Source: Candidatus Omnitrophota bacterium
Lineage (GTDB): Bacteria > Omnitrophota > Gorgyraeia > 1-14-0-20-64-10
DNA: 64,000 nucleotides
Direction of reading: 5' to 3'
NCBI GenBank assembly: GCA_023818695.1
Contig: JAMWCF010000001.1
Location: forward strand, 147,306-211,305
The notes under the pieces were generated by a model, which was not told where the DNA came from, did no database searches, and worked only from the letters and a program-made list of their open reading frames with translations. Made by a program: the position numbers and the translations under genes. Position 1 is the first letter of the stretch; every line of letters starts with the position of its first letter. This document shows positions 1 to 31,042 of this stretch, piece by piece.

Positions 1-1
1 G

Positions 2-622
2 GGCATTCTTGGAGCGCTGGTCATGCGCGGCCTCTTCATCTGGGGAGGTCTTGCGCTGATTCACCAATTCCACTGGGTCATCTACGTGATGGGGGCGTTC
101 CTGGTGCTTACCGGTTTGAAACTGGTCCGCGAGAATATCGAAGACCACCCGGACAAGAACCCGGTGATCAAGTTTTGCAAGAGGATCATCCCGTTGGATA
201 CGGGCTATCAGGGGGAGGCCTTCTTCGTGAAGAAAGCGGGCAAGTGGTTTGCCACGCCGCTCTTCCTCGTGCTCGCCGTGGTCGAGATGACCGACGTGAT
301 CTTCGCCGTCGATTCGGTGCCAGCCGTGCTCGCCGTCTCGCACGACCCGTTCATTGCGTACACCTCGAACGTTTTCGCAATCCTGGGTTTGAGGGCGCTT
401 TACTTCGTGCTCTCCGGCGTGATCCCCAGGTTCGTCTACCTGCGCTACGGGTTGTGCGCGATCCTCGTTTTCGTGGGGCTGAAGATGCTCGCTTCGGCCT
501 TCTACAAGATCCCGATTGGGGCCTCTCTGGCGGTGATCGCGACGTTGCTGATCGTTTCGGTGGGGTTCTCCCTCTATGCGACGCGGGGTGGCCGAAAGCC
601 GAAGGGGCGTTCAGGCCACTAG
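2..622 (+). CDS. TerC family integral membrane protein, 5' end outside window
   Basis: The frame is open from the window edge. The translation is a polytopic membrane protein with TerC-type motifs (DVIFAVDSVPAV, YTSNVFAILGLRALYF). Confidence 0.8.
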   Translation, partial: GILGALVMRGLFIWGGLALIHQFHWVIYVMGAFLVLTGLKLVRENIEDHPDKNPVIKFCKRIIPLDTGYQGEAFFVKKAGKWFATPLFLVLAVVEMTDVIFAVDSVPAVLAVSHDPFIAYTSNVFAILGLRALYFVLSGVIPRFVYLRYGLCAILVFVGLKMLASAFYKIPIGASLAVIATLLIVSVGFSLYATRGGRKPKGRSGH

Positions 623-880
623 GGCCTGAAACTCTGTGCGCCTCCTCACGAGAGAGGCGACATAGCTGCAGGTCGGGATAACCTTCAATCCCTCCTCTTT
701 GGCGTAGCGGAAGCCGGTCTCTACCAGTTTTTCAGCTATCCCTCGGTGACGAGCATTCTCCGGTACGTAGGTGCTGTAGAAGTCCAGCGCGCCGCCGGTC
801 CGATTGTAGGAAAGGACCGCCTTTTCGCCGCCCAGATCGATCACGAAGCGGCTGCCTCTTTCATCGTGGATCACTTCCAT
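611..880 (-). CDS. small GNAT-fold N-acetyltransferase (YjdJ-like, 89 aa)
   Basis: I chose the internal ATG at 880. The product (MEVIHDERGSRFVIDL...YVPENARHRGIAEKLV...VIPTCSYV) resembles the short GNAT family. The ATG overlaps the upstream stop (TGATG). The 76-aa extension in the ORF track is R/P-rich and overlaps the neighbouring gene. Confidence 0.7.
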   Translation of the reverse strand: MEVIHDERGSRFVIDLGGEKAVLSYNRTGGALDFYSTYVPENARHRGIAEKLVETGFRYAKEEGLKVIPTCSYVASLVRRRTEFQALVA

Positions 881-1170
881 CAGGAAGCGGAGGAGTCGAT
901 CGTTTTGGCCAGCTGGAAATCCTTGGGAGTTAGTCCGCCGGCCGAGTGGGTGGAAAGGGTGAGGGTCACCTTGTTGTAAAGGATCAGGATGCCCGGGTGA
1001 TGGTCTTGGGATTCGGCGCAGCCGGCCACTTTGTTGACGAACCGGATCGCCTCCATGAATTCTTTGAACTTGTATGTTTTCGTGATCCGGCCGCCGGTCT
1101 GTTCCCACCCCGGGATTTCACGCAGGAGCGCCGCGACGGCTTCGCCGGAAAGCTTTTCGGCGCCGGCCAT
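880..1170 (-). CDS. pterin-4a-carbinolamine dehydratase (DCoH/PhhB family, COG2154)
   Basis: Family signature CAESQDHHPGILILYNKVTLTLSTHSAGGLT is present. The ATG at 1170 overlaps the stop of the upstream moeZ-like gene. Confidence 0.85.
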   Translation of the reverse strand: MAGAEKLSGEAVAALLREIPGWEQTGGRITKTYKFKEFMEAIRFVNKVAGCAESQDHHPGILILYNKVTLTLSTHSAGGLTPKDFQLAKTIDSSAS

Positions 1171-2654
1171 CAGTACCTCGGCATACCGGGATCGACCTCT
1201 TCGGCCCATGCGTCCACGCCGCCGGCCAGCGACTTGATCTTTTTGAAGCCGGCCGATTTCAGGAGCTCGGCGGCCTTCCGGCTGCGCATCCCCTTGTGGC
1301 AGTAAAGGACCATTTCGTCCGCCGAGTCCAGCTCCGACATCCTCCTGGCGAACTCGGAGCTCGGGATGAGGCGGGCCCCCTCGATATGGCAGATTTCATA
1401 TTCGTGCGCTTCCCGGACATCAATCAGCGTAATGTTGGCTTTCTCGCTCAAGAGTTTTTTTAGCTCCGGTGCGCTGATCTCCTGGACTCCGTTGGCTTGC
1501 GGCGCGGCGGCTGGCGTCTCCTCGCCCCGACGCAGACCGCAGAACTCCTCGTAGTCAATCAGCTTCCGGATGGAGGGGTTCGGGCCGCACAGAGGGCAGT
1601 CCGGGTTCTTCTTCAGCTTCAGCTCGCGGAACCGCATTTTCAATGCATTGAAGAGCAGCAGCCGTCCGATCAGCGGCTCGCCGTTTCCAAGAATCAGCTT
1701 GATCCCTTCGGTGGCCTGGATGGTGCCGATGATCCCCGGCAGGATCCCCAAGACCCCTCCCTCGGCGCAGGATGGGACCAGTCCCGGCGGCGGCGGTTCG
1801 GGGTAAAGACAGCGGTAGCAGGGACCCCGTTTGGCATCGAAGACGGAGGCCTGCCCCTCGAACCGGAAGATGGAGCCGTACACGTTCGGTTTACCCGTCA
1901 GGACGCAGGCGTCGTTGACCAGGTAGCGGGTGGGAAAGTTATCGGTACCGTCGATCACGATGTCGTAATTTTTGATGATCTCCATGGCGTTTTCAGAAGA
2001 CAGGCGGACCTCGTGCGTTTCGATCCTGATGTGGGGGTTAATCGCCTGAAGCCGCTCCTTCGCGGCCTGGAGTTTTGGTTTGCCGACGTCCTGCGTGGTA
2101 TAGAGGACCTGCCGCTGGAGGTTCGTGAAATCGACCACGTCAAAATCAACCAGCCCGATCCGCCCCACACCGGCTGAAGCCAGGTAAAGCCCCAGCGGGG
2201 AACCAAGCCCGCCGGTGCCGATCAGGAGCATGGAGGCGGCCTTGAGTTTTTTCTGGCCTTCCACCCCCACCTCCGGCATGATCAGGTGACGGCTGTACCG
2301 CTTGATCTCATCATGGGAGAGATTGACCGGCTCGTCGGCGCCACCGGCGATGGAGGGGACGATGGTCAAAGCGTCGGTCTCTTTGAGGGCCGTTTGAAGC
2401 CCCTGCGCGTGCCGGATATCTTCGTCATTGACGAAGACGTTCACGAAAGAGCGGAGTTTGCCTTCTTCTTCATAAAGGTGGGGTTCGAGCGCCTCATGCT
2501 GGCGGACAAGATCCTTCAAGGCCTCTCCGACGGTTCGCCCGGTGACCCGGATCGTCTCCTCTTGGCCGACGAACCTTTGCAGGGCCGTCGGGATATAGAC
2601 AGGGATCGTATTATTGTTTCCAGAATTCTTCATCGAGATACCGTTCGCCTCCAT
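1170..2654 (-). CDS. three-domain fusion: CysO/MoaD-like sulfur carrier (ends SIAGG) + MoeB/MoeZ E1-like adenylyltransferase + rhodanese
   Basis: aa 1-105 resemble mycobacterial CysO (IPTALQRF.G, FVNVFVNDEDIR, TIVPSIAGG). aa ~112-370 form a ThiF/MoeB fold (IGTGGLGSP, CYRC and CPLC zinc motifs, PSCAEGGVLG). aa ~395-494 form a rhodanese domain with active-site loop CHKGMRS. The start is ATG 2654 or ATG 2633; both overlap the end of cysM. Confidence 0.85.
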   Translation of the reverse strand: MEANGISMKNSGNNNTIPVYIPTALQRFVGQEETIRVTGRTVGEALKDLVRQHEALEPHLYEEEGKLRSFVNVFVNDEDIRHAQGLQTALKETDALTIVPSIAGGADEPVNLSHDEIKRYSRHLIMPEVGVEGQKKLKAASMLLIGTGGLGSPLGLYLASAGVGRIGLVDFDVVDFTNLQRQVLYTTQDVGKPKLQAAKERLQAINPHIRIETHEVRLSSENAMEIIKNYDIVIDGTDNFPTRYLVNDACVLTGKPNVYGSIFRFEGQASVFDAKRGPCYRCLYPEPPPPGLVPSCAEGGVLGILPGIIGTIQATEGIKLILGNGEPLIGRLLLFNALKMRFRELKLKKNPDCPLCGPNPSIRKLIDYEEFCGLRRGEETPAAAPQANGVQEISAPELKKLLSEKANITLIDVREAHEYEICHIEGARLIPSSEFARRMSELDSADEMVLYCHKGMRSRKAAELLKSAGFKKIKSLAGGVDAWAEEVDPGMPRY

Positions 2655-3546
2655 CAGGGAAAATCATGACAATGAGTCCACGCTCTATTCCGCGGGCGAT
2701 CCTCAAGCCGGCTTCCAGAGCGGCGCCGGAGGAGATCCCCACGAGCAACCCTTCTTCCCGCGCCAGCCGTTTGACCATCCGGTAAGCCCTCTCGGTCTTC
2801 ACCATCTCCTGCCGGTCGGGAAGTCCGGCGTCATAGATGCCGGGAACAATGGAAGTTGCCATCTGTTTCAACCCTTCCAGCCCGTGCAGGGGGGAGTCCG
2901 GCTGGACTGCAACCAGCTGGATCGATGGATTCAGCTCTTTCAACCGTCGGCCGGTTCCCATCATCGTGCCGCTGGTCCCCAGGCCGGCCACGAAGTGGGT
3001 CACCGTTCCCTCCGTCTGTTCCCAGATCTCCGGGCCGGTTGTGTCGTAGTGGGCCTGCCAGTTGCAGGGGTTGTTGTACTGATCGGCGTAGAAATACCTC
3101 GCCGGCGATTCTCCGGCCAGGCGGCGCGCTTCCAGGATGGCGCCGTCCGAACTCTCCAGGGGGTTGGTCAGGACCAGCTCCGCTCCGTAAGCCCGCAGGG
3201 TTTTGATGACGGAAGGGCTCGCGTTGGCTGGGACGCACAGTCTCACCCGGTATCCTTTCGCCGATCCGATCATCGCGTAAGCGACGGCGGTGTTTCCGGA
3301 GCTGGCGTCCAGGAGGACCTTCTCCTTCGTGAGAAGACCGGTCCGTTCCGCCTCGGCAACGATGCGGGCGGCGGCCCTGTCTTTGACCGATCCCCCCGGA
3401 TTGAACCATTCGGCTTTGGCTAGAAGTGTGACGTGGGGAACCTCCTGGTTGATCTTCTTCAGCGGCATAAGGGGGGTGTTTCCAATCCGGCTTAATATAT
3501 CGCCCGCTTCCGTGAGGCCGACTTCAGAAACGCCGATTCTTTTCAT
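2611..3546 (-). CDS. cysM: PLP-dependent cysteine synthase, CysM-like
   Basis: Motifs GGSVKDR (PLP lysine), LGTSGTMMG and ISSGAA are present. Start set at ATG 3546 (MKRIGVSE...), 1 nt after the upstream stop. The 31-aa ORF-track extension is rejected. Confidence 0.8.
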   Translation of the reverse strand: MKRIGVSEVGLTEAGDILSRIGNTPLMPLKKINQEVPHVTLLAKAEWFNPGGSVKDRAAARIVAEAERTGLLTKEKVLLDASSGNTAVAYAMIGSAKGYRVRLCVPANASPSVIKTLRAYGAELVLTNPLESSDGAILEARRLAGESPARYFYADQYNNPCNWQAHYDTTGPEIWEQTEGTVTHFVAGLGTSGTMMGTGRRLKELNPSIQLVAVQPDSPLHGLEGLKQMATSIVPGIYDAGLPDRQEMVKTERAYRMVKRLAREEGLLVGISSGAALEAGLRIARGIERGLIVMIFPDGGERYLDEEFWKQ

Positions 3547-3547
3547 C

Positions 3548-4390
3548 CTACCAGATTCCCAGCTCCGCTTTGGCCTCTTCGGAGGCCATTGTTTTCGGAT
3601 CCCACGGAGGCGACCAGACCAGTTCCGGCTGAACCTCATTCACCCAGGGCAGTCTGCCCACGACCCCCTGCACCTGTCCCTTGATGACCGGCCCCAGCGG
3701 GCAACCGGGACTGGTGAGGGTATAGATGATCTTCACGGAGCCGTCGTGGATCTCGATGCCGTAGATGAGCCCCAGATCCACGACGTTCATGTTTAATTCC
3801 GGGTCGATGACCCTTGTCAGCGCGGCCCGGACCTCCTCCTCTTTGCTGGAGGAAGACCGGATGGGCTGCGCTCCGGCGGAAACTTCATGAGCAGGGAATC
3901 TGTCGGTATCTGATTTCATCCCCTCCTCCCCCTCCACGTGGCTGGCCTGGTTTTCCCCCCGCTCGCGCGCCAAGATCCCATCCAGCAGGGTGTTCCATGC
4001 CAATATCGCGCATTTGATCCGGACCGGGTACTTCTTGATCCCCTCGAGGGCTTCCAGGTCTTCCAATTCTCCCGGAAACTCCATCGGCTTCGATTCCAGC
4101 ATCAGTTTCTTGAAGCTGCCGATGATCTCCTTTGTTTCGGCGAAGCTCTTTCCCTTGACCGCCTCCGTCATCATGGAGGCGGAGGACTGGCTGATCGAAC
4201 AGCCCTTTCCTTCGAACTTCAGGTCCTGGAGGATGTCGCCCCTGACGGCCGCCGTCAGCTCGAGCTCGTCGCCGCAGAAGGGATTGGCTCCCTGCGCCCT
4301 GAAATCCGGTTTCTCCAGCCGGCCATGGTTTCGCGGGTTTTTGAAATGTTCCAGGATGATGTCCCGGTACAGATCATCTGCGAGAGACAA
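3548..4390 (-). CDS. SufU/IscU-like scaffold fused to a C-terminal DUF59 (SufT/MIP18-like) domain
   Basis: N-terminal domain: LYRDIILEHFKNPRNHG, NPFCGDELEL, GKGCSISQSSASMM, IKCAILAW. A linker of about 45 aa follows. C-terminal domain: ALTRVIDPELNMNVVDLGLIYGIE and TLTSPGCPLG. The likely start is TTG 4390, 10 nt after AAGGAG; the track start TTG 4426 is also possible. Confidence 0.8.
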   Translation of the reverse strand: MSLADDLYRDIILEHFKNPRNHGRLEKPDFRAQGANPFCGDELELTAAVRGDILQDLKFEGKGCSISQSSASMMTEAVKGKSFAETKEIIGSFKKLMLESKPMEFPGELEDLEALEGIKKYPVRIKCAILAWNTLLDGILARERGENQASHVEGEEGMKSDTDRFPAHEVSAGAQPIRSSSSKEEEVRAALTRVIDPELNMNVVDLGLIYGIEIHDGSVKIIYTLTSPGCPLGPVIKGQVQGVVGRLPWVNEVQPELVWSPPWDPKTMASEEAKAELGIW

Positions 4391-5612
4391 CGGAAAAGAT
4401 CTCCTTTGCTTTCCGGAGGGCGGCAACGAGAAGATCCGCCTCTTCCAGTGTGTTGTACAGATAAAAGCTGGCCCGGGCGGTGGCGACCACCCCCAGCTTC
4501 CTCATAAGGGGTTTGCAGCAGTGGTGGCCCGCTCGGATCGCGATCCCGGCGTCATCCAGGATCTGCCCGAGGTCGTGCGGGTGGAGATCCTGGACGTTGA
4601 ATGAAACAGCCCCGCCTCGGACCGCGGGGTCCATCGGGCCGTACACAGTAATTCCCTCCACCTGCCGGAGCTTTTCCAGCGTGGTGCGGGTCAACTCCGC
4701 TTCATGGGCCCGGATCTCCGGCATCCCGATCCCTTTGAGGTAGTCGATGGCCGCGCCGAAGGCGATCACATCGGCGATGTTGGGGGTCCCCGCTTCGAAT
4801 TTCCAGGGCAGGTCGTTCCATGTGGAGTGGTCCAGCCAGACGTCCTTGATCATGTCCCCGCCGGACAGGAAAGGGTCCATCTCTTCCAGGATCGCCTCCT
4901 TTGCGTACAGCACGCCTACCCCGGTGGGGCCGAGCATCTTGTGGGATGAGAAGGCCAGGAAATCGCAGTTCAGGTCGACCACGTTCACCGGCATGTGAGG
5001 AACCGCCTGCGCCCCATCCACCAGGACAGGAATCCCCTTCGCGTGGGCCATTTGGATGATCTCTTTCACCGGGTTGATGGTGCCAAGGACATTGGACATC
5101 AGGGTCAGCGAAACCAGCTTCGTTCGGCCTTCCAGGAGTCCGGGGACCGCGCCCATATCAAGCCGGCCGTCCGTGACGACTGGGATGAATTTGAGCCGAA
5201 GCCCTTTTCTCTGGGCCAGAATTTGCCAGGGCACGAGGTTGGAATGGTGCTCCATCTCCGTCAGGAGGATCTCGTCACCCTGCCGAAGGTGCTTCAGCCC
5301 CCAGCTGTGGCTGACCAGGTTGATCGACTCGGTGGTATTCCGGGTGAAGATCACCATCGTCGGTTTGGGAGCCCCGATGAAGCGGGCTGTCTTCTCCCGG
5401 ACCCCCTCGTAGAGGGCGGTCGATTCTTCACTCAAGGCGTGAATTCCCCGGTGGATGTTGGCGTTGTGCAGGGTGTAGTAATCCGCCAGCGCTTGCACCA
5501 CCTGGAGTGGTTTCTGCGAGGTGGCGGCGTTGTCCAGATAGACCAGCGGCTTGTCGTTGACCCGCCTCTTCAGGATCGGGAAGTCCTCTCTTATCTTCTT
5601 CGCGTCCAGCAT
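4374..5612 (-). CDS. sufS: cysteine desulfurase SufS
   Basis: Class V aminotransferase motifs SSHKMLGPTGVGVLY (PLP lysine) and RAGHHCCKPL (active-site Cys). Start at ATG 5612 (MLDAKKIREDFP...), 8 nt after the sufA stop. Confidence 0.9.
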   Translation of the reverse strand: MLDAKKIREDFPILKRRVNDKPLVYLDNAATSQKPLQVVQALADYYTLHNANIHRGIHALSEESTALYEGVREKTARFIGAPKPTMVIFTRNTTESINLVSHSWGLKHLRQGDEILLTEMEHHSNLVPWQILAQRKGLRLKFIPVVTDGRLDMGAVPGLLEGRTKLVSLTLMSNVLGTINPVKEIIQMAHAKGIPVLVDGAQAVPHMPVNVVDLNCDFLAFSSHKMLGPTGVGVLYAKEAILEEMDPFLSGGDMIKDVWLDHSTWNDLPWKFEAGTPNIADVIAFGAAIDYLKGIGMPEIRAHEAELTRTTLEKLRQVEGITVYGPMDPAVRGGAVSFNVQDLHPHDLGQILDDAGIAIRAGHHCCKPLMRKLGVVATARASFYLYNTLEEADLLVAALRKAKEIFSVVSRR

Positions 5613-5620
5613 GCTTTCCT

Positions 5621-5944
5621 TTATACGCTGAATGAGTGACCGCAGCCGCACGACCCCTTCGCGTTTGGGTTCTCGATGGTGAAACCGGCTCCTGTCATGG
5701 CGTCGACCCAGTCGACCCGGCAGTTGTCCACCATCGGCAGGGATTTTGGGTCGACGACCACCTTGATCCCGTTGTTGTCGAAAACGGCGTCCTCGGAGGA
5801 GGGGTTCTGGTCGAAATCCATCGCGTAGGAGTATCCGGAACAACCCCCTCCCACCACCCGGATCCGCAGGGCATACCCTGTTTTTCCCTCCGACTCCTGG
5901 AGTGTTTGGACCTTCTTTATCGCTTTTTCCGTGAGTGTGATCAT
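5621..5944 (-). CDS. sufA: HesB/IscA-family Fe-S carrier (SufA/ErpA-like)
   Basis: GGGCSGYSY and the C-terminal GSCGCGHSF cysteine motif. 107 aa. Confidence 0.85.
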   Translation of the reverse strand: MITLTEKAIKKVQTLQESEGKTGYALRIRVVGGGCSGYSYAMDFDQNPSSEDAVFDNNGIKVVVDPKSLPMVDNCRVDWVDAMTGAGFTIENPNAKGSCGCGHSFSV

Positions 5945-5956
5945 CGTATCCTCCCT

Positions 5957-6265
5957 TTAGATTTGTATGAGAACGTCATTTCCATCCACCTTAACCGGGA
6001 ATGTCTTCACCGGGACGACGGCGGGCAGGGTGATCGCCTCACCGGTTTTTACGTTGAATCGGGCGCCGTGCCGGGGACATTCCACCTCCTCTCCCTCCAG
6101 GGTCCCCTCCCCGAGCGGGCCCCCATCATGCGTGCACAGGTCCTCAATTGCGTAAAATGCGCCGCCGTTGCGGGCCAGGGCGATCCTGCGGCCCTTGGCC
6201 TCCACCACCTTGATGCTTCCTTCCGGCAGATCGCTGGTCTGCGCCGCCTTAACCCAGCCGCTCAT
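5957..6265 (-). CDS. Rieske-type [2Fe-2S] ferredoxin-like protein
   Basis: Rieske motifs LCTHDGGPL and ECPRHGARF. ATG 6265 forms an ATGA overlap with the sufD stop. Confidence 0.8.
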   Translation of the reverse strand: MSGWVKAAQTSDLPEGSIKVVEAKGRRIALARNGGAFYAIEDLCTHDGGPLGEGTLEGEEVECPRHGARFNVKTGEAITLPAVVPVKTFPVKVDGNDVLIQI

Positions 6266-7470
6266 GCGCCGTTGAGTCTCCTCTTTAATTCCGACATCAG
6301 CCGTTCGCGGAGCTCTTCCGCGGGGATCCTCTGCAGGATCTGCTCGAAGAAACCTTCCACGATCAGATGTTCCGCTTCGGCGGGCGCAAGCCCTCGGCTG
6401 TTGAGATAGTAGATCTGGTCCTGGTCGACCGGCCCCACGGCCACACCGTGCGTGCATCGCACATCATCGGCCAGGATCTCGAGCATCGGGACCGAATCGG
6501 CGGAGGCGCCGTCGCTCAAGAGCAGGTTTCTGTTGGCCTGGTAGGCGTCCGATTTCTGCGCTTGTTTTTCGATCCGGATCAGCCCGGTGTAGACCGCTTT
6601 CGAGCTGTCTTTCAGGGCGCTCTTGTACAGCAGGTCACTGCGGGTTTGTCCCGAACGGTGGTCCTGCACCGTGTGGAAGTCGAAATGCTGGGAATCCGAA
6701 CCGAACAGCACCCCGAGCAGGTCCGCTTGCGCCCCTTTCTCCTGGAGAATCGTTTCAATCTGCGCCTTCGTCGCTTTCGCCCCCAGCGCCGCGTGGATAT
6801 TCAGGAAGCTCGCATCCCGAGCGATCTCCGTCCGCTGGGTGTAGATCTCCGATATGTTTTCCCCCCACTGCTGGAGGTGAATGTAGCGCAGTGTCCCCTC
6901 CTCCCCGACCGAGATCTCCACCATTTCATCGGAGAAGGCGGGGTTGCCTCCTCCGGCCGCACCGATCCTCTCGTCTATCAGGGTCGCTTCCGAGCGCCGT
7001 CCCATCACGATGACGACGTGGGGAAAGAAGGCCAGGGCGCCCGCCGATTCGGAGATCCGGACCCGCAGGGGTGTCGGGATCTTCACACCGTCCGGGACGA
7101 AGACGAACACCCCCTGCCGCCACAGGGCCTCATGCAGGGAGACATGCTTCGCGAGCCCCAGCGGCCGGCCGGTCCGGAAGAGGTGTTTCTCCATCAGGTC
7201 GGGGAATTGGCGAAGGGCCGTGCTCAAATCGGTGACGATGACCCCCGACCGGATCCATTCCGGTGCCGGGGTTTCGAAGCTCACCTGCAGCGCTTCCTTC
7301 GGATCGAAACCGGCCGGTTCCCACCGGAAGGAATCCGGATCGGTCCGCCGCCATTCCTCGTCCGTTTTGAGGGGCCAGGGAAGGGAGTTAAACTTCTCCC
7401 ACCCCTCCCGGCGCAGCCGCAGCAGCCGGCTTGAAGATTCCGGTCCGAGCCGCTTGAGGACCTCTTCCAT
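6262..7470 (-). CDS. sufD: Fe-S cluster assembly protein SufD
   Basis: SufB/D-family C-terminus (DQIYYLNSRGLAPAEAEHLIVEGF). The start overlaps the sufB stop. Confidence 0.85.
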   Translation of the reverse strand: MEEVLKRLGPESSSRLLRLRREGWEKFNSLPWPLKTDEEWRRTDPDSFRWEPAGFDPKEALQVSFETPAPEWIRSGVIVTDLSTALRQFPDLMEKHLFRTGRPLGLAKHVSLHEALWRQGVFVFVPDGVKIPTPLRVRISESAGALAFFPHVVIVMGRRSEATLIDERIGAAGGGNPAFSDEMVEISVGEEGTLRYIHLQQWGENISEIYTQRTEIARDASFLNIHAALGAKATKAQIETILQEKGAQADLLGVLFGSDSQHFDFHTVQDHRSGQTRSDLLYKSALKDSSKAVYTGLIRIEKQAQKSDAYQANRNLLLSDGASADSVPMLEILADDVRCTHGVAVGPVDQDQIYYLNSRGLAPAEAEHLIVEGFFEQILQRIPAEELRERLMSELKRRLNGA

Positions 7471-8879
7471 CAGCCGACAGATCCCTCCATCTCCAGCTGG
7501 ATGAGCCGGTTCAACTCCACCGCGTATTCCAGAGGGAGTTCCTTCGCGAAGGCCTCGAAGAAGCCGTTGACGATCATGGTGGTGGCCTCCTGTTCTTTCA
7601 GGCCCCGGCTCATCAGGTAAAAAAGCTGTTCCTCTCCCACCTTGCTGACGGTCGCTTCATGCCCGATCTGGACGTGCTTGGCGTCTATCTCCATGGTGGG
7701 GTATGTGTCCGAGCGGGAGATCTCATCCATCAGCAGGGCGTCGCATCGGACGGATGACTTGACGTGCTCCGCCTGGGGATAGACCTTCACCAGCCCTCGG
7801 TAGCTCGTTCGCCCGCCATCCTTCGAGATCGACTTCGCAAGGATCGTGGAGCTTGTTTCCGGGGCGGCGTGGACCATCTTGGCTCCGGCGTCTTGGTGCT
7901 GGCCCTTGCCGGAGAAGGCGACGGAGATCACCTCCCCCCTGGCTTTGCGGCCGACCAGGTAGACCCCCGGGTACTTCATCGTCAGCTTACTGCCGAGGTT
8001 GCCGTCCAGCCACTCCACGATCGACTCCTCATGGGCGATCGCCCGCTTGGTCACCAGGTTGTAGACATTCTTGGACCAGTTCTGGATGGTCGTGTACCGG
8101 ATGTGTGCGTGGGGCAGGGCCACCAGCTCCACGACCGCCGAATGCAGACTATCGGAGGCGTAAACCGGGGCCGTGCATCCCTCGATGTAATGGACTGATG
8201 AGCCCTCATCAGCGATGATCAGCGTTCTCTCGAACTGTCCCATGTTTTCCGCGTTGATCCGGAAGTAGGCCTGCAGCGGGATCGCCACCCGAACCCCCTT
8301 GGGCACGTAGATGAAGCTCCCTCCCGACCAGACGGCGGAGTTGAGCGCCGCGAACTTGTTATCAGCCGCTGGGATGACGGTTCCGAAATATTTCCGAACC
8401 AGTTCCGGATATTGCTTCAGGCCGTCATCCATTCCGAGGAAGATGACCCCCTGCTTCTCCAGGTCCTCCCGAATGGAGTGGTAGACAACCTCGCTTTCAT
8501 ACTGGGCGGTTACGCCGGCCAGGAACTTGCGCTCGGCTTCCGGGACGCCCAGCCGGTCGAACGTCTTCTTGATCTCTTCGGGCACGTCTTCCCATGTCCG
8601 GCCCTGTTTGTCGGTCGGTTTGAGGTAGTAATAGATGTTCTCGAAATCGATCTGGGAGAGGATCTCCAGGTTGGCCCAGGGGGGCAGGGGTTTCCTGTTG
8701 AAATGCTCCAGGGCCTTGAGACGCAGCTGCCTCATCCAGCCCGGCTCCTTCTTCATCCAGGAGATCTCTTCGACGATGTTCTTCGTCAGCCCCCTTTTCG
8801 CCTTGTAGACGTATTTCTCCGGGTCGTGGAAGCCGTATTCCTGCTCGTAGTTCTTGCCGACATCAATGCCCGGCTTCAT
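7470..8879 (-). CDS. sufB: Fe-S cluster assembly protein SufB
   Basis: Strong SufB-like translation ([19 protein letters not shown]..., [24 protein letters not shown]). Start at ATG 8879; the track extension is rejected. Confidence 0.95.
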
Positions 8880-9648
8880 GAGGCACCTCCTGACGCTCCC
8901 CCTGCGTTTTCTCCTCGTACGGGGCGTATCCCTTCCGCTCGAGTTCCAGGGCCAGCTCTTTGCCGCCGGACTCGATGATCCGGCCGTTGATGAAGACGTG
9001 CACGACATCCGGCTGGATGTAGTTCAGGATCCGCTGGTAGTGGGTGATCAGCAGTACTCCAAGCGCCGGTCCCCGCATCCGGTTGATCCCCTCCGCTACG
9101 GTCCGCAGCGCATCGATATCAAGCCCCGAGTCGGTCTCGTCCAGCACCGCCAGCTCCGGCTTCAGCAGGGACATCTGGAGGATCTCATGCCGTTTTTTCT
9201 CGCCGCCTGAAAACCCGTCATTGACGGCTCTGGTAGCGAAGTCTTCTGGAATTTCCAGCGTGGCCATGGTGGCGGTCAGTTGTTTCCTGAATTCCTTCGG
9301 CTGGTATCCTTCGCCGAAGCGGGCCTTCATGGCGGTCCGCAGGAAATTCGCTACGCTGACTCCCGGGATGGCGGTGGGATATTGGAAAGCCAGAAAGATT
9401 CCCGCCCGGGCCCTAGCATCGGTTTTCAAGCCGGTGATATCCTCCCCTTTATAAAGGATCTGTCCTTTGGTCACCTGGTATTTTGGATGGCCCATCAGGA
9501 CGTGGGAAAGGGTTGATTTGCCGGAGCCGTTGGGTCCCATCAAGGCATGGACTTGCCCTTTCTCGATCGTCAAGGAGATTCCCTTGAGAATCGCTTTCTC
9601 CTCCACCGATACATGGAGATTTTTGATTTCAAGCAATGGCCCGCTCAT
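8863..9648 (-). CDS. sufC: Fe-S assembly ATPase SufC
   Basis: Walker [13 protein letters not shown] signature FSGGEKKR, Walker [16 protein letters not shown] 9648 forms an ATGA overlap with the regulator stop. Confidence 0.95.
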
Positions 9649-10076
9649 ATTTTGAATCCTTTCTCCGCCCCCAAAAGATCGGAAAGAAAAATGCCGTCCA
9701 GGAAATTTTCCATCACCCGCGTCAGCGAAGCCCACGCCGACCGGACGCAACAGTCGTTGATATGGACGCAGGAGGTCAGGTTGCCGGTGAACCGGTCGCA
9801 GATCTCCTGCGTGGAAGGAACCTTTCCCAGGGCCCTGACCACCGATCCCAAGGAGATCTCTTCCGGTTTGCGGGTCAGGTGGTACCCCCCCTTGGTCCCT
9901 CTGACCGACTGGGTCAGCCCCGCTTGGTTCAGATGCCGCAGGAGTTTTTCCACGTAAGCAGGGGAGAGCCCCTCTTTCTGGGCGATCTCTTTGACTGTGA
10001 CTCCGTTCTCCACTCCGTTTTTCGCCAGTTGGAGAAGGCAGCGTAGCCCGTATTCTTCCTGTGCCGTTATCTTCAT
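9645..10076 (-). CDS. Rrf2-family transcriptional regulator (IscR-like)
   Basis: N-terminal winged HTH ([29 protein letters not shown]) and a cysteine cluster C-x9-C-x5-CC. It is the first gene of the suf operon. Confidence 0.85.
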
Positions 10077-10095
10077 GGGATCTTTTAAGGTACTA

Positions 10096-10119
10096 ATACA
10101 TGACTATTTTGTCAAGTAT
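10096..10119 (-). promoter_or_regulatory. candidate Rrf2/IscR operator: inverted repeat ATACTTGAC-N6-GTCATGTAT (minus-strand reading)
   Basis: 8 of 9 positions pair across a 6-nt spacer. It lies 20-43 nt upstream of the regulator ATG, inside a strikingly AT-rich spacer. The left half contains a TTGACA -35-like hexamer. Confidence 0.4.
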
Positions 10120-10197
10120 CTGCTTATCGTCATATCTACTATAAGGTTAGCATACTTAGGATTAAAATAGGATAAAAAAGTAATATTTAGTTAGTGC

Positions 10198-10226
10198 TTG
10201 CTTACTTGGATGCAATTTGGTAAATT
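10198..10226 (+). promoter_or_regulatory. candidate sigma70-type promoter for def (TTGCTT-17-TAAATT)
   Basis: The two hexamers are spaced 17 nt apart, about 24 nt upstream of the proposed def start. Confidence 0.3.
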
Positions 10227-10249
10227 ACAACGGCTTATGGAGTTTTGAA

Positions 10250-10780
10250 TTGATCCTTAAAGTCGCCCAATTAGGTCATCCTGTTCTCCGAAAGAAAGCG
10301 GAACCTGTTCCGCTGGAGAAGATCTCCTCTCCAAGAATCCAGGGGCTTATCCAGGATATGCTTGAAACGATGGAGGAGTATGACGGGATCGGGATAGCCG
10401 CCCCGCAGGTGCATGTATCGCTTCAACTGGCCTTGATCGGTTCACAGGGGTCACCCCGCTACCCCAAAGCCCCCAAAGTCCCTTTTACCGTCTTGATCAA
10501 TCCGAAGATCAAACCGGTTTCTTCCCATAAGGAGGTGGACTGGGAGGGTTGCCTGTCGGTGGAGGGGTTGAGAGGGCAGGTTCCGCGCTGGCGGTCTGTG
10601 GAGGTTGAGGGGTATAATGCCAAGGGTGAATGGTTCCGGTTCCGGGCGGACGGTTTTCATGCCCGGGTGGTTCAGCATGAATGGGATCATCTCCAGGGAC
10701 ATGTGTATTTGGACCGGATGCCGGATCTCACCACGCTGTGCTACATGAAAGAGTTCGCCCGCTACTGGGCGGATGATTAG
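10250..10780 (+). CDS. def: peptide deformylase
   Basis: Motifs GIGIAAPQ, EGCLS and HEWDHL. Start TTG 10250 lies 7 nt after GGAG and gives LILKVAQLGHPVLR; the track start TTG 10217 is possible. Confidence 0.9.
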   Translation: MILKVAQLGHPVLRKKAEPVPLEKISSPRIQGLIQDMLETMEEYDGIGIAAPQVHVSLQLALIGSQGSPRYPKAPKVPFTVLINPKIKPVSSHKEVDWEGCLSVEGLRGQVPRWRSVEVEGYNAKGEWFRFRADGFHARVVQHEWDHLQGHVYLDRMPDLTTLCYMKEFARYWADD

Positions 10781-10791
10781 GCAAGGGGAGC

Positions 10792-11202
10792 ATGGTCCGA
10801 GTAGAAAAACAGCTTTCGGTTTTTCTGGAAAACCGGCCCGGCGGTCTGGCCAAAATCTGCGGCACGCTGGCGGAGGCGGGGATCAATATCCTGGCGCTGA
10901 CGATCCATGACACGGTCGACCATGCCATCATCCGGCTTTTGTGCGACAGGCCTGTCAAGGCGCTGTTGATCCTGGAGCAGCTGGGGCTTTATATCCTGGA
11001 ATCGGACGTCATCGTCTATGAGCTGGAAAACAAACCGGGGGCTCTGGCAGAGGTGGCCAGGAAGCTGGCCCGTGCCGACATCAATATCGAGTACGCCTAC
11101 TGCAGCGCCGTTCCGGACCAGGGGACCGGTTGTTTGGTCATTCGGGCCGATGAAGCGGACCGGACCCTCGAACTTTTAAGCGAGAACGCCCCCTTCGGCT
11201 AA
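10792..11202 (+). CDS. tandem ACT-domain protein
   Basis: Two ACT-like repeats (LSVFLENRPGGLAKICGTLAEAGINI; ELENKPGALAEVARKLARADINI). AAGGGGAG lies upstream of the ATG. Confidence 0.75.
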   Translation: MVRVEKQLSVFLENRPGGLAKICGTLAEAGINILALTIHDTVDHAIIRLLCDRPVKALLILEQLGLYILESDVIVYELENKPGALAEVARKLARADINIEYAYCSAVPDQGTGCLVIRADEADRTLELLSENAPFG

Positions 11203-12907: not shown

Positions 12908-14272
12908 ATGTTAGAATGGACGACTATGCGTACGTCCGACAAAAGATCTCCGGTCACGTTTCGGCGGACGGCGGCGTACAGAAAGGCCGTGGATCTGGTC
13001 AGGAAGCTCAAGGATGCCGGCCACGAGGCCCTGCTGGTAGGCGGTTGCGTCCGTGACCTGCTGATGGGGCGCTCCCCGAAAGATTTCGACATCGCCACCA
13101 GCGCCGTTCCGGAGCAGGTGGCGGCCCTCTTTCCCCGGATCATTCCCGTCGGGGTCCAGTTCGGGGTCCAGATTGTTGTCAGCGGCGGTTACTCCTTTGA
13201 AGTGGCCACCTTCCGGACCGATCTCTCTTACAAGGACGGCCGCCATCCGGAAGGAGTGCGCTTCTCCACGCCGGAGGAAGACGCCTTGAGGCGGGATTTC
13301 ACTGTCAACGGGATCTTTTTCGATCCGGTCGGACAGAAGGTGATCGATTACGTCGGTGGCCGGGCCGATCTGAAAAAGAAGCTGATCCGGGCGATCGGCA
13401 ACCCGGCGAAACGCTTTCAGGAGGACCGTTTGAGGATGCTCCGGGCGGTCCGCTTCGCCTCGGTCCTGGATTTCCGGATCGATCCGGCCACCTTCCGGGC
13501 GATCTGCCGGCTCGCCAGGGGGATCGGCGAGGTCAGTCGAGAGAGAGTTCGGGATGAGCTGGTCAAGCTTTTTACGGGACCGCACCCGGGCAGGGGGCTG
13601 TCCCTGCTGGATGAGAGCGGATTGCTTGCCGTCATCCTGCCGGAGGTGGCCAAGATGAAAGGGGTCCAGCAGCCGCCGGAGTTCCATCCGGAGGGGGACG
13701 TTTTCGTCCATACGCGAATTCTGCTGGACCGTCTGAAGAAGCCGTCGACGGTTTTGGCTTTCGCCGGCCTGCTGCACGATGTCGGCAAACCGCCGACGTT
13801 TCGGGTGGCCGACCGGATCCGCTTCGACGGCCACGACAGGGTGGGGGCGTCGATGGCCAAGCGGATCTGCCGGGAACTGCGCTTTTCCAACGCGGAAACC
13901 GAGGCGATCTCGGAAATCATCGGCGACCACATGAAGTTCAAGGATGTGCGCCGAATGCGGCTGTCCACCCTCAAGCGGTTCATGGCCCTTGGGACTTTTG
14001 AGGAGCAGCTGGCGATGCACCGTGCCGACTGCTTGGCCTCCCACGGTGATTTGAGCAACTGGAGGTTTTTGAGGAAGAAGCAAAAGGAGCTTTCTTCGGA
14101 AGAGCTCAAGCCGGAGCCGTTGATCAAAGGGGGCGATCTGCTGGAGATGGGATTCCCGGAGGGGCCTGCCATCGGGAAGATCTTGAAAGCGGTCGAGGAA
14201 AAGCAGCTGGAGGGGGATCTGAAATCGAAGGAATCGGCGTTGTCCTGGGTCCAGAAAGAGTTCCGGCGGTGA
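12908..14272 (+). CDS. cca: CCA-adding enzyme / poly(A) polymerase family with HD domain
   Basis: Nucleotidyltransferase motif LVGGCVRDLLMGRSPKDFDIAT and an HD motif LLHDVGKP. Confidence 0.8.
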   Translation: MLEWTTMRTSDKRSPVTFRRTAAYRKAVDLVRKLKDAGHEALLVGGCVRDLLMGRSPKDFDIATSAVPEQVAALFPRIIPVGVQFGVQIVVSGGYSFEVATFRTDLSYKDGRHPEGVRFSTPEEDALRRDFTVNGIFFDPVGQKVIDYVGGRADLKKKLIRAIGNPAKRFQEDRLRMLRAVRFASVLDFRIDPATFRAICRLARGIGEVSRERVRDELVKLFTGPHPGRGLSLLDESGLLAVILPEVAKMKGVQQPPEFHPEGDVFVHTRILLDRLKKPSTVLAFAGLLHDVGKPPTFRVADRIRFDGHDRVGASMAKRICRELRFSNAETEAISEIIGDHMKFKDVRRMRLSTLKRFMALGTFEEQLAMHRADCLASHGDLSNWRFLRKKQKELSSEELKPEPLIKGGDLLEMGFPEGPAIGKILKAVEEKQLEGDLKSKESALSWVQKEFRR

Positions 14273-15057
14273 AGCGGTGGTCTCCGATGCGCGAGAAACC
14301 GGCCTCCCCGGCGGAGGCGATTGCTTCCGTTTTCGCGTGGATCGGCATTTCAGCGGTGACCGTTTTCTGGGTGATCCCGATCGCTGTCGTCTTCCTTTTT
14401 CGCCGGTTTCTAGACCCGGACCTGCGCCTGGCGCATCATTTCGCCACCCGGTGTGGCAGGAACCTGATCGGGCTGGCGCCCGGTTCATCGGTCCAGGTTT
14501 TCGGTGAGGAGAATATTCCGGCTGACCGGCCGGCCATCTTGATGGCCAACCATTTGAGCTATGTGGACGTTCCTCTGCTGTGCTTCATCCGGCACCAGTT
14601 CAAATGGATGGCGGACGTCGGGCTTTTCAGCATTCCATTCTTCGGCTGGGCGATGCGGATGGCCGGCTATATTCCGGTCGACCGGGGCAACCCCCGGGCC
14701 GGGCTGCGCTCCCTGGAGCAGGCGAAGTTCTGGCTGTCCAAAGGGATCTCGATCTTCATCTTTCCGGAAGGGACCCGAAGCCAAACCGGCGTCTTTTCCA
14801 AATTTCAGACAGGGGGGTTCCGGCTGGCCGTCACCGCCGGGGTGCCGGTGGTTCCGGTGGTAGTGATCGGCACCCGGCAGCTTCTGCCGCGCAACAGCTG
14901 GATCTTCCGGTGGGGGATCAAACTGCAGATTCGGATCCTGGAGCCGGTTCTTCCCGACTCTTCCGATCCAAAGCAGGTCCGGGCCCTCTCGGCCCGGGTT
15001 CGGTCGAGCATGTTCCGCGCGTACCAGCAGCATCTCGGGGAGATCCGGGCTTCGTGA
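14269..15057 (+). CDS. plsC: 1-acyl-sn-glycerol-3-phosphate acyltransferase
   Basis: HX4D motif NHLSYVD and FPEGTRS. GTG 14269 forms a GTGA overlap with the cca stop; ATG 14287 is an alternative start. Confidence 0.85.
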   Translation: MKRWSPMREKPASPAEAIASVFAWIGISAVTVFWVIPIAVVFLFRRFLDPDLRLAHHFATRCGRNLIGLAPGSSVQVFGEENIPADRPAILMANHLSYVDVPLLCFIRHQFKWMADVGLFSIPFFGWAMRMAGYIPVDRGNPRAGLRSLEQAKFWLSKGISIFIFPEGTRSQTGVFSKFQTGGFRLAVTAGVPVVPVVVIGTRQLLPRNSWIFRWGIKLQIRILEPVLPDSSDPKQVRALSARVRSSMFRAYQQHLGEIRAS

Positions 15058-18627: not shown

Positions 18628-19242
18628 TCAACCCCTCGCCTCCATCTGGGTGTTATGGCGTTTCTCGAACGCGGCGATCGCCGCCTCCTGCCGAAGGGTC
18701 AGCCCGATTTCGTCGAGTCCCCGGATCAGGTGGTCTTTGACCGACGGGTCAATGTCGAAATGGAAGGAGATCTCCTCCGGCAGGTGAAGGGTCACCCGCT
18801 GTTCTTCCAGGTTGACCGTGGCCTCCAGCCCTTTGTACCGACTGGTCATCTGGAAGATCTCCTCCACCTCCGGCTCCTGCAGCTCTACGGTGAGAAGACC
18901 GTTCTTGGTGGAGTTATTCCGAAAGATATCGGCGAAGCTGGGAGCGATCACCGCTTTGAAACCGTACTGGTGGACCGCCCAGACGGCGTGTTCCCGGGAA
19001 GAGCCGCAGCCGAAGTTATTTCGGGCCACCAGGATCGAGGCCCCATTGAACCTCGGTTCATTCAGCTCGAAAGCGGGATCCGGTGTGCCGTCCGGCCGAT
19101 AGCGCCAGTCATAGAACAGAGATTCACCGAAGCCGGTCCGCTTGATCGATTTCAGGAACTGTTTCGGGATGATCTGGTCGGTGTCGACGTTGGCTCTGTC
19201 CAGCGTGGCCACCAGTCCCCGGTGCGACCTAAACGCTTCCAC
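18628..19242 (-). CDS. leuD: 3-isopropylmalate dehydratase small subunit
   Basis: [18 protein letters not shown] and [11 protein letters not shown]. Start GTG 19242 lies 7 nt after GGGAG and overlaps leuC by 14 nt. Confidence 0.9.
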
Positions 19243-20641
19243 TTTTCCACTCCCTGATGTCCACAAAGTGTCCTTCCACCGCCGCGGCGGCCGCCATTTC
19301 CGGGGAGACCAGATGAGTCCGGCCCCCCTTGCCCTGGCGCCCCTCGAAGTTCCTATTGGAGGTGGAAGCGGAACGCTCCTGTGGTTTGAGCTGGTCCGGG
19401 TTCATCCCCAGACACATGGAACAGCCGGCGAACCGCCATTCGCAGCCTGCCTCCTTGTAGATCTTGTCCAGCCCCTCGGCCTCTGCCTGCCGACGCACCT
19501 GCTCGGAACCCGGCACCACCAGCACCTTGACCCCTTTGGCCACCTTCCGTCCCTTGAAGATTCTCGCGGCGGCCCGCAGGTCTTCGATCCGGCCGTTGGT
19601 GCAGCTGCCGATGAAGACCATGTCTACCTTGATCTCGGTGATCGGCGTGCCGGGCTTCAAGCCCATGTAGGCGAGGGCCTGTTCCACATCCCTGCGGCTG
19701 TAGCCGGGGACCTTGTCCGGTTCTGGGATTCGGCCGGTGACATCCATCACCATCCCGGGGTTGGTTCCCCAGGTCACCTGCGGCGCGATCTCCGATGCGT
19801 TGATCTCCAGCGTCCGGTCGAATGCCGCGTCCGGGTCGGAGGGAAGGGTCTTCCAGTAGGCTATGGCCTTTTCCAGCGCCGCTCCTTTCGGGGCGAACGG
19901 CCGGTTTCCGGAGGCAATGTAGTTGAAAGTGGTCTCATCCGGCGCGATCATCCCGGCCCTGGCGCCGGCCTCGATTGACATGTTGCAGATCGTCATGCGC
20001 TGTTCCATGGAGAGCCGCCGCACCGCCTCCCCGGCGTACTCCAGCACATAGCCGGTCCCTCCGCCGGTGCCGACCAGCCCGATCAGCTTCAGAATCATAT
20101 CCTTGGGGGTGGATCCCGGTTTCAGCCGGCCGGTGTATTCCACCTTGAAGGTTTTCGGTCTCTTCTGGGGCAGGGTCTGCGTGGCCAGCACGTGCTCTAC
20201 CTCCGAGGTTCCGATTCCAAAAGCGAGGGTGCCAAACGCTCCGTGCGTTGAGGTGTGGGAGTCACCGCAGACGATGGTGCAGCCGGGCAGGGTGATTCCC
20301 AGCTCCGGTCCGATAATATGGACGATCCCCTGCCTGTCTGACTGCAGGCCGTAGAGGGTGATCCCGAACTGGCGGCAGTTGGTTTCCAGCGCATCGATCT
20401 GTGCCCTGGAGATCGGATCGGCAATTGTCAGCCGGTCGTCGGTCGGCACGTTGTGGTCCATCGTGGCGAAGGTCAGCTCCGGCCGCCGGACTGTCCGCTT
20501 GGTCAGGCGAAGCCCCTCGAACGCCTGCGGGGAGGTCACCTCATGGACCAGGTGCCGGTCGATGTAGAGCAGGGTAGTTCCGTCGGATTGGCCGGCCACG
20601 ACGTGCGAATCCCAGATCTTCTCGAAGAGGGTTTTTCCCAT
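19229..20641 (-). CDS. leuC: 3-isopropylmalate dehydratase large subunit
   Basis: Aconitase-family motifs [15 protein letters not shown] and GSCTNGR. Confidence 0.95.
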
Positions 20642-23497: not shown

Positions 23498-23498
23498 C

Positions 23499-26713: not shown

Positions 26714-26718
26714 TAGCC

Positions 26719-30151: not shown

Positions 30152-30237
30152 CCGGAAAGAGCCCCGATAGGTAAGCCCGTCAGAGGCGGGCCCGCCAATG
30201 CTACGGCGGGGCAGGGACGCCAAAAACGGCATTCAGG

Positions 30238-30282: not shown

Positions 30283-30304
30283 GGGGGTTGGCTTTGGACA
30301 CCCC

Positions 30305-31033: not shown

Positions 31034-31042
31034 GGGTGGAGC

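Follow-up and report, generated by a model that had tools for sequence, protein, structure and literature searches.

The 64,000-nucleotide stretch of Candidatus Omnitrophota DNA analysed here (the window) carries on its minus strand, at 611-10076, twelve consecutive genes in which an iron-sulfur (Fe-S) cluster assembly operon of the SUF type runs directly into genes related to a protein-thiocarboxylate route to cysteine. We give about even chances to the reading that, in one Omnitrophota sub-clade, a pre-existing cysteine module was joined to the 3′ side of a SufCBD-SufS-SufU operon under Rrf2 control, where it would supply cysteine to the desulfurase SufS. The arrangement is a lineage-specific and modular fusion of two known systems, neither a universal SUF feature nor a new kind of system. 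What is new is the attachment of the module, deprived of its JAMM protease gene, to an Rrf2-regulated SUF operon in that sub-clade, along with the finding that the module tends, in a way not remarked on before, to lie close to genes for cysteine desulfurases. An earlier note, made from the DNA letters alone, had listed the twelve genes; profile searches (Pfam, NCBIfam) back the identity of each, and all the coordinates it listed were recovered on re-derivation.

Organization and control of the twelve-gene block

In what follows, NCBIfam figures are given as score in bits versus the cutoff of the model, and L-numbers designate surveyed loci. Curated cutoffs are passed by the ATPase SufC (8863-9648; TIGR01978, 349 bits versus 213), whose start overlaps the rrf2 stop, by SufB (7470-8879; TIGR01980, 719 bits versus 346), which has an AGGAGG Shine-Dalgarno sequence, by SufD (6262-7470; TIGR01981, 249 bits versus 222), by a 412-amino-acid SufS-family cysteine desulfurase (4374-5612; TIGR01979, 604 bits versus 475) and by SufU (TIGR01994, 157 versus 92.5). 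SufS contains the sequence RAGHHCCKPL, which we take to hold the catalytic cysteine, and the SufU translation reads NPFCGD, GKGCSIS and RIKCAIL, presumably its catalytic and ligand motifs. SufU is fused to a DUF59/SufT-like domain (PF01883, 70 bits) in a protein of 280 amino acids with a TTG start (3548-4390), a fusion also found in relatives. Genes for a Rieske-type [2Fe-2S] ferredoxin of 102 amino acids (5957-6265; PF00355, 76 bits), which occupies the same position in many SufS-anchored loci, and for an A-type Fe-S carrier of the SufA/IscA/ErpA family (5621-5944; TIGR00049, 131 bits versus 59) lie between sufD and sufS.

SUF operons of the SufCBD-SufS-SufU type are represented by sufCDSUB of B. 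subtilis and sufR-sufBDCSU-sufT of Mycobacterium tuberculosis. The window shares with these Firmicutes and Actinobacteria operons SufB, SufC, SufD, a SufS-family desulfurase, SufU and a DUF59/SufT-like domain. It differs from them in that a three-cysteine Rrf2 replaces SufR, SufU and DUF59 are fused, the Rieske and A-type carrier genes are inserted, and a four-gene non-SUF tail is added. In a related Omnitrophota metagenome-assembled genome (MAG), SufB is 828 amino acids long and has a LAGLIDADG_3 match, which suggests an intein (L083, 2410-4896); SufB of M. tuberculosis also has an intein.

The junctions between genes, recomputed from the sequence, are tight. ATGA overlaps join rrf2 to sufC (9645-9648) and sufD to the Rieske gene (6262-6265), single-nucleotide overlaps occur at 7470 (sufB/sufD), 1170 (moeZ/PCD) and 880 (PCD/GNAT), and 17-nt overlaps at 8863-8879 (sufC/sufB) and 4374-4390 (sufS/sufU-DUF59). 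The gaps measure 8 nt at 5613-5620 (sufA/sufS), 1 nt at 3547 (sufU-DUF59/cysM) and 12 nt at 5945-5956 (Rieske/sufA); the last of these, absent from the junctions listed before, is the exception to the claim that all junctions are overlaps or gaps of at most 8 nt. The cysM gene and the downstream fusion gene overlap by 23 nt (2611-2633) when the fusion is begun at the start preceded by a GGAGG Shine-Dalgarno sequence, and by 44 nt when an alternative ATG at 2654 is used. The coordinates 2611-2654 previously given for this junction do exist, with 2633 as the likelier start, in view of the Shine-Dalgarno sequence and of the 487-amino-acid protein in NCBI. No sigma-70-like promoter turned up within the block in a consensus scan. 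No terminator hairpin had been seen there previously; a single terminator-like one, weak and on the minus strand, was found within sufS (4629-4610). Terminator-like sites on both strands total 18, versus 12.1 +/- 3.9 in shuffles, and no Rfam match was found in 1-11000.

The first gene of the block (9645-10076) encodes an Rrf2-family regulator of 143 amino acids (PF02082, 116 bits) with three cysteines, spaced C-x9-C-x5-C, in its C-terminal half. The triad is conserved in an alignment of regulators and aligns with the cluster ligands of IscR. Only the TIGR00738 model (rrf2_super) passes its cutoff, the IscR (84 versus 208), CymR and SUF-regulator models remaining below theirs. Since the IscR equivalog cutoff is not reached, the protein is an Rrf2 of IscR-like type and not IscR itself.

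The AT-rich spacer upstream of rrf2, 140 nt long and divergent from def, contains on the minus strand an imperfect palindrome, ATACTTGAC-N6-GTCATGTAT (10096-10119), a putative Rrf2 operator with 8 of 9 arm positions complementary. It overlaps the -35 box TTGACA (10110-10115), the only promoter-like site for the block; a weak -10 box, TACCTT, is found 17 nt past it (10087-10092), and the rrf2 ATG lies 10 nt beyond the -10. No Shine-Dalgarno sequence precedes rrf2 (window 10076-10119). With the ATG so close behind the putative -10 box, the operon is probably transcribed without a leader or with a very short one. The same element, ATAsTTGAC-N6-GTCATrTwT, is present upstream of rrf2 in six related loci (L081, L083, L084/L085, L086 and L087), which makes seven loci with the window. 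The TGAC-N6-GTCA core has only two copies in the 64-kb window, and the second, at 18738, was rejected as an operator, sitting within GC-rich coding sequence. A repeat search with an exact 6-nt seed misses the palindrome because of its central mismatch. We take the regulator to be an IscR-like Rrf2 that senses Fe-S clusters and controls its own gene, and infer that it binds the palindrome. The twelve-gene block thus looks like one transcription unit under the Rrf2 regulator, as the earlier note had proposed, a proposal backed by the conservation of the palindrome across the -35 box, seen here and upstream of rrf2 in the six related loci. Automated annotation of rrf2 in two relatives (L081, 190 amino acids; L083, 180 amino acids) begins too early with respect to the conserved start.

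The cysteine module in the window and in other phyla

Downstream of the SUF genes, the gene at 1170-2633 encodes a tri-domain ThiS-ThiF-Rhodanese fusion of 487 amino acids (PF02597; PF00899, 290 bits; PF00581, 78 bits); NCBI lists a protein of equal length and 100% identity from a Candidatus Omnitrophica MAG. The chain opens with a CysO-like beta-grasp domain (2340-2633) whose last two residues are Gly97-Gly98 (2340-2345), and continues with a MoeZ/MoeB-type E1 adenylyltransferase and a C-terminal rhodanese with the loop CHKGMR, which carries the active-site cysteine. Neither the MoeZ model (NF005902, 505 bits versus 647) nor the MoeB model (555 versus 633) is reached. The best solved matches of the N-terminal 98 residues are CysO of A. 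orientalis (4n6e_B, E 2e-18) and of M. tuberculosis (3dwg_C, E 3e-17), and both alignments stop exactly at the C-terminal Gly-Gly of the solved proteins. Among 18 aligned fusions from several phyla, four of them from Omnitrophota, the PSIAGG sequence is invariant and a variable linker follows it; equally invariant are the GxGGLG nucleotide loop of the E1, two CxxC pairs, Cys289 and the rhodanese motif C445-x2-G-x-R-S. The CysO-type domain therefore ends in an invariant Ala-Gly-Gly, but an internal one, after which the MoeZ polypeptide continues. The cysO::moeZ::rhodanese gene of the earlier note was right as to the CysO-type identity; CysO is here the N-terminal domain of MoeZ and not a free protein.

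A sulfur carrier built in this way recalls MoaX of M. tuberculosis, a fused MoaD-MoaE molybdopterin synthase that needs to be cut after its Gly-Gly by a protease still unidentified (PMC4326299). Both proteins have a ubiquitin-like sulfur carrier at their N-terminus, made in one piece with a partner enzyme. The fusion partner of CysO is, however, the activating E1 and not the downstream synthase, and the cleavage of CysO::MoeZ is putative.

The gene upstream (2611-3546) encodes a CysM-type pyridoxal phosphate (PLP) cysteine synthase of 311 amino acids (PF00291, 232 bits) with the loop HGLEGLKQM; its TIGR01138 (cysM) score of 342 bits is below the cutoff of 394. The reference sequences used for comparison were verified against the PDB. 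An alignment of 68 CysM proteins adjoining such fusions conserves the PLP lysine, the SGNT loop and the short CysM-type loop, the latter as HGLEGLKHM, matching residues 214-222 of Rv1336, the M. tuberculosis CysM. The window protein and 66 of the 68 have a lysine in place of Arg220 of M. tuberculosis CysM. An arginine is also found there in E. coli CysM, the solved structures of which bear the name O-acetylserine sulfhydrylase/cysteine synthase B in the PDB. Since Rv1336 and E. coli CysM share this arginine, the position does not discriminate; the assignment to an O-phosphoserine or O-acetylserine class by active-site alignment, suggested previously and carried out here, found the lysine and was dropped, as the residue does not separate the classes. 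CysM is a genuine member of the cysteine synthase family, and its gene adjoins that of the carrier with a 23-nt overlap.

Both parts appear to be maintained by selection. The ratio of nonsynonymous to synonymous change (pN/pS) is 0.28-0.39 for cysM and 0.26-0.35 for the CysO domain, compared with 0.21-0.37 for sufS, at saturated synonymous sites. Purifying selection comparable to that on sufS argues that cysM and the CysO domain are still functional. The MoeZ part is the most conserved section of the tail (76-78% amino-acid identity, pN/pS 0.19-0.27).

Like mec-cysO-cysM (Rv1334-Rv1336) and moeZ (Rv3206c) of M. tuberculosis, the module combines a Gly-Gly beta-grasp carrier, an E1-rhodanese and a CysM-type PLP enzyme in which the active-site loop is short and position Arg220 is occupied by a basic residue. 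Relatedness to the thiocarboxylate route, already claimed from the sequence, is borne out by the 4n6e_B and 3dwg_C matches: cysM and CysO::MoeZ form a genuine relative of it. Unlike the M. tuberculosis pathway, the window has its carrier fused to the MoeZ N-terminus and no Mec/JAMM gene in the operon, and its cysteine genes lie within the SUF operon, whereas the suf operon and moeZ of M. tuberculosis are at separate loci.

The module also occurs outside Omnitrophota. Scanning the fusion alignment against one genome per GTDB species gave 80 loci from Acidobacteriota, Gemmatimonadota, Armatimonadota, Eisenbacteria, Verrucomicrobia, Elusimicrobia, Thermoplasmata-labelled MAGs and others. In 63 of them, from many phyla, cysM lies directly upstream of the fusion on the same strand, and cysM-fusion intervals of 400-600 nt are filled by a JAMM/Mov34 open reading frame (ORF) with an HSHPD motif. 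The usual order outside the SUF-linked clade is cysM-JAMM-cysO::moeZ. These families correspond to operon type 4c, which comprises a ThiS/MoaD-like protein, an E1-rhodanese, a JAB peptidase and a cysteine synthase; the paper that lists it also predicts JAB-mediated release of fused carriers, and leaves SufS or any other desulfurase unmentioned (Iyer, Burroughs, Aravind 2006, PMC1779556). The cysteine module itself is therefore already known. The window shares with type 4c the protein families and the predicted coupling of carrier-protein sulfur transfer to cysteine production, and differs by the loss of the JAB gene, by a PCD gene directly after the fusion and by its embedding in a SUF operon. 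The arrangement had been thought undescribed, which does not hold for the module but does hold, within the literature searched, for its attachment to SUF.

Stand-alone modules occur within Omnitrophota as well. The closest outgroup, L089, has cysM-fusion-JAB beside sulfite reductase, with the JAB gene following the fusion where the window has PCD, and another Omnitrophota MAG (L091-L094) has cysM-fusion-bAvd-JAB, again beside sulfite reductase. The bAvd gene of the latter is a small gene with 23S_rRNA_IVP/bAvd Pfam matches located between cysO::moeZ and JAMM (L091, 7616-7972; also L092-L094).

Two features of the loci in other phyla bear on Fe-S metabolism. First, Gemmatimonadales possess a stand-alone operon, Rrf2-cysM-JAMM-cysO::moeZ (L004, 8122-11428; also L005, L006 and L026), whose three-cysteine Rrf2 is 36-41% identical to the window regulator and whose flanks in L004, encoding a metallophosphoesterase and SmpB, are unrelated. 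Secondly, 11 of the 80 loci have a clear cysteine desulfurase gene no more than 10 kb from the module, in several arrangements. SufS-type genes are found with suf genes, upstream or divergent, in L028, L035, L062 and L067, and a full iscR-iscS-sufA-sufBCD-sufS-sufU set downstream in L041. In four Acidobacteriota loci (L015, L022, L032 and L034), Rrf2 and then IscS follow directly downstream, and three of these loci add IscU-like and IscA-like genes; the IscS cutoff is passed in L015 and L034. In L079 the gene near the module is NifS-like, and a Verrucomicrobia MAG encodes a family 2A encapsulin-cargo cysteine desulfurase (L070, 10620-12098; NF041166, 813 bits versus 800). Against a 2% background, which is our own estimate, 11 of 80 gives a binomial p of 6e-7, with no phylogenetic correction. 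These linkages and the Gemmatimonadales operon suggest that the cysteine route is recurrently tied to Fe-S biogenesis, through regulation or metabolism; no paper describing such a tie was found in the literature searched. In L070, the cysM-JAMM-cysO::moeZ genes lie 1.2 kb upstream of the encapsulin-cargo desulfurase, a tie to a sulfur-metabolism nanocompartment.

Modularity of the SUF linkage and its possible meanings

In the Omnitrophota relatives closest to the window (L081-L085; fusion 74-76% identical), the order Rrf2-sufCBD-Rieske-sufA-sufS-sufU/DUF59-cysM-fusion-PCD is kept, with or without GNAT, and overlapping start and stop codons are kept across lineages with saturated synonymous divergence. 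A metagenome contig (L125) has the same order throughout and stops in the fusion gene, after cysM and the CysO domain. Other relatives carry different tails behind sufU-DUF59. L035 has cysM and then a moeZ from which CysO is exactly deleted (cysM stop, then MLTHEEIKRYSRHL); L086 and L087/L088 have an unfused moeZ, about 80% identical, and PCD, with neither cysM nor CysO; L097 (SufS 65%, Rrf2 58% identical) has cysM alone (9998-11038). In L144, PCD alone ends the suf operon (6465-6821). L097 and L144 are cases in which tail genes each associate with SUF independently of MoeZ. The association of PCD with SUF in L144 has no obvious explanation.

That the tail supplies cysteine to SufS is plausible, and the steps would be as follows. 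The three-cysteine Rrf2 would sense Fe-S cluster status, bind the palindrome over the -35 and set all twelve genes together, as its sequence and conservation suggest. The CysO domain would be released after Gly98 by a protease encoded elsewhere, a cleavage that is required because the internal Gly-Gly has no free carboxylate. By homology with the M. tuberculosis pathway, MoeZ would adenylate the freed CysO and the rhodanese persulfide would convert it to CysO-thiocarboxylate, which CysM would condense with activated serine to give cysteine. The substrate of SufS would in this way be made in step with SufS, MoeZ remaining a general E1 for other sulfur carriers. The cysM-only tail of L097, the Rrf2-cysM operons of other phyla and the sulfite reductase neighbours of stand-alone modules favour a supply function.

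Several observations weigh against it. The first concerns the release of CysO: JAMM adjoins the fusion in 64 of the 80 loci elsewhere, as scored with a profile hidden Markov model (HMM), and the SUF-linked copies are without it. No JAMM was found in the 64-kb window by tblastn of 47 gap ORFs, by an H[ST]HP motif scan or by the profile HMM, nor was one found by tblastn, motif and profile HMM within 10 kb of any of the nine SUF-linked Omnitrophota loci. The profile was built from 34 JAMM ORFs of surveyed loci and the L089 JAMM, the latter scoring 123 bits as positive control. A repeated weak match at 55985-56086 (E 0.01) was rejected, being antisense to a 493-amino-acid ORF that we take, from its sequence, to be glycerol kinase. 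A third Omnitrophota genome (L095) has an unlinked JAMM gene; a genome may thus have JAMM even where the operon does not, and the CysO-processing protease may be encoded elsewhere.

Secondly, specific orthology between the window CysM and Rv1336 was rejected in the PDB comparison, where M. tuberculosis CysK1 (219 bits) and E. coli CysM (218) score higher than Rv1336 (186). The protein ends four residues past its RYLDEE motif and is without the long C-terminal tail of Rv1336. Thirdly, cysM and the CysO domain are dispensable within the clade. A neighbour-joining tree built on the MoeZ part of 120 homologs scatters all 23 unfused proteins inside the Omnitrophota clade, every outgroup of which is fused. 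The implied ancestor is a fused protein from which CysO was lost repeatedly; cysM is retained in L035 despite the exact CysO deletion, and in L086 and L087/L088 the moeZ-PCD linkage persists without any cysteine synthesis. Relatives of this last kind indicate that cysteine supply is not the sole reason for the linkage. Finally, a SufS-anchored survey of 80 metagenomic relatives (55-76% identity), of which 34 had at least 3.5 kb of downstream DNA, found moeZ in 0/34 and cysM in 1/34. In this neighbourhood check, of the kind that the earlier note had called for, the adjacency is rare when viewed from SufS. The SUF linkage is conserved in a small Omnitrophota clade, and the absence of moeZ from the 34 SufS loci makes it lineage-specific. 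The cysteine supply for Fe-S assembly first proposed from the gene order thus retains the single Rrf2 unit and the genuine pathway relative, and is weakened by the dispensability of cysM and CysO in the clade and by the missing JAMM.

A different reading, possible though on the unlikely side, makes MoeZ the element under selection. SufS, via SufU, would load the MoeZ rhodanese with persulfide, MoeZ would thiocarboxylate ubiquitin-like carriers (CysO, or those serving molybdopterin, thiamin or tRNA thiolation), PCD would support pterin or molybdopterin chemistry, and cysM and CysO would be dispensable passengers. Relays of this kind are known: human NFS1 donates sulfur to the rhodanese domain of MOCS3, and yeast Nfs1 to Uba4. 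The likeness is that a MoeB-like E1-rhodanese is thought to take persulfide from a desulfurase, here encoded three genes apart; those relays are not operon-encoded with a cysteine synthase, and the relay of the window would be a putative one. The moeZ-PCD tails placed right after sufU-DUF59 without cysM or CysO, the unfused proteins nested among fused ones, which imply that CysO was lost repeatedly while MoeZ was kept, and the high conservation of the MoeZ part all favour such a sink for sulfur. So does the work of Voss et al. (2011), according to which MoeZR serves both MoaD and CysO, its physiological sulfur source being unknown and a cysteine desulfurase the likely donor (PMC3227635). A cysteine route fed by SufS would, however, be circular, running from cysteine through persulfide and thiocarboxylate back to cysteine, and the cysM-only and PCD-only tails of L097 and L144 link to SUF without MoeZ. 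MoaD, MoaE, ThiS and ThiG were not found among the scanned window ORFs or the Pfam-annotated genes of related loci, and sulfite reductase beside the stand-alone Omnitrophota modules points to sulfide as the sulfur source. Supply of cysteine to SufS and use of its sulfur by MoeZ are not mutually exclusive, and a SufS-to-MoeZ relay is an equally live alternative.

A wider reading, which we think rather unlikely, makes the SUF operon of this clade a sulfur-trafficking hub. The SufS/SufU persulfide would be the physiological donor, long sought, of the MoeZ rhodanese, a non-JAMM protease would free CysO, CysM would recapture carrier-bound sulfur as cysteine and an Fe-S-sensing Rrf2 would tune the whole. 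If this were true, the recurrent placement of the module in other phyla with desulfurases (SUF, ISC, NifS-like or encapsulin-cargo) or behind a three-cysteine Rrf2 would reflect a general and undescribed coupling of thiocarboxylate cysteine synthesis to Fe-S biogenesis. The operon touches on two questions. The sulfur donor of MoeZ-type E1-rhodanese proteins remains an open one, called unknown by Voss et al. (2011, PMC3227635), and the matching of cysteine supply to desulfurase demand is poorly understood beyond model organisms. SufS, SufU, CysM and CysO::MoeZ under one repressor form a compact, expressible set for both, and the relatives with cysM only, with moeZ only or with CysO deleted offer a series of deletions provided by nature. 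In practical terms the operon carries limited weight, since the organisms are uncultured, the families known throughout and the clade small.

It is improbable, in our estimate, that the carrier is vestigial, with JAMM lost, the fused CysO unreleased and without a carrier role, CysM acting as an ordinary sulfide- or thiosulfate-dependent synthase and MoeZ serving other carriers. The distribution of JAMM (0/9 SUF-linked loci versus 64/80 elsewhere), the retention of cysM in L035 and L097 beside an exact CysO deletion or as the only tail gene, and CysM scores equally good against sulfide-using CysK/CysM enzymes agree with it. Purifying selection on the CysO domain at the level of sufS, the Ala-Gly-Gly invariant in 18/18 aligned fusions, four from Omnitrophota, and the possibility of an unlinked JAMM in Omnitrophota genomes, as in L095, speak against it. 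Least probable of all, and very much so, is a neutral juxtaposition in which rearrangement landed the tail behind the suf operon with no functional coupling: the highly variable tail composition, the missing moeZ linkage in 34/34 more distant SufS loci and the low fraction of modules near a desulfurase in other phyla (only 11/80) are compatible with it, but start/stop overlaps were maintained despite saturated synonymous divergence, independent and differing linkages to SUF, ISC, NifS-like and encapsulin-cargo desulfurases far exceed the 2% expectation, and a dedicated three-cysteine Rrf2 precedes the module in Gemmatimonadales.

The 3′ end of the block and the rest of the window

The two last genes of the tail are small. 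The first (880-1170) encodes a pterin-4a-carbinolamine dehydratase of the PCD/DCoH family (COG2154), 96 amino acids long (NF002017, 109 bits versus 80). The protein matches, with ESQDHHPGILILYNKVTLTLSTHSAGGLTPKD, the activity signature [EDKH]-x3-H-[HN]-[PCS]-x5,6-[YWF]-x9-[HW]-x8,15-D, reportedly defined by Naponelli and co-workers in 2008, who are also said to have proposed an ancillary role in molybdenum cofactor (Moco) metabolism for PCD-family proteins. That proposal, named in PMC3223725, would favour the reading of the tail as a sulfur sink. The second gene (611-880) encodes the GNAT acetyltransferase of the earlier note, which is indeed present and can be refined to a minimal 89-amino-acid Acetyltransf_CG protein (PF14542, 75 bits) with no NCBIfam match. 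It is present in L083 and L086 and absent in L081, L084 and L087. At the 3′ end, the stop side of the GNAT gene converges on a plus-strand TerC-family gene (23-622), the 5′ end of which may run off the window; the two 3′ ends overlap by 12 nt (611-622), and no terminator-like hairpin lies between them.

No Moco, thiamin or sulfate-assimilation genes were found among the twenty other window ORFs scanned, which include transketolase genes. Fe-S enzymes abound in the window outside the block. The large and small subunits of an aconitase-family pair are encoded at 18628-20641; complex I subunits, namely the 49 kDa, 51 kDa, NuoG-like, NuoH and three antiporter-like proteins, at 23481-35867; and a flavoprotein of the succinate dehydrogenase/fumarate reductase type (Pfam FAD_binding_2, Succ_DH_flav_C) at 41432-43159. 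This content agrees with an organism that lives by respiration and needs many Fe-S clusters. At 12908-14488, a long minus-strand ORF of 525 amino acids, which has no Pfam match, overlaps a plus-strand one of 454; at the equivalent position in L081, between CstA and an ACT-domain gene, lies a 489-amino-acid gene without a Pfam domain.

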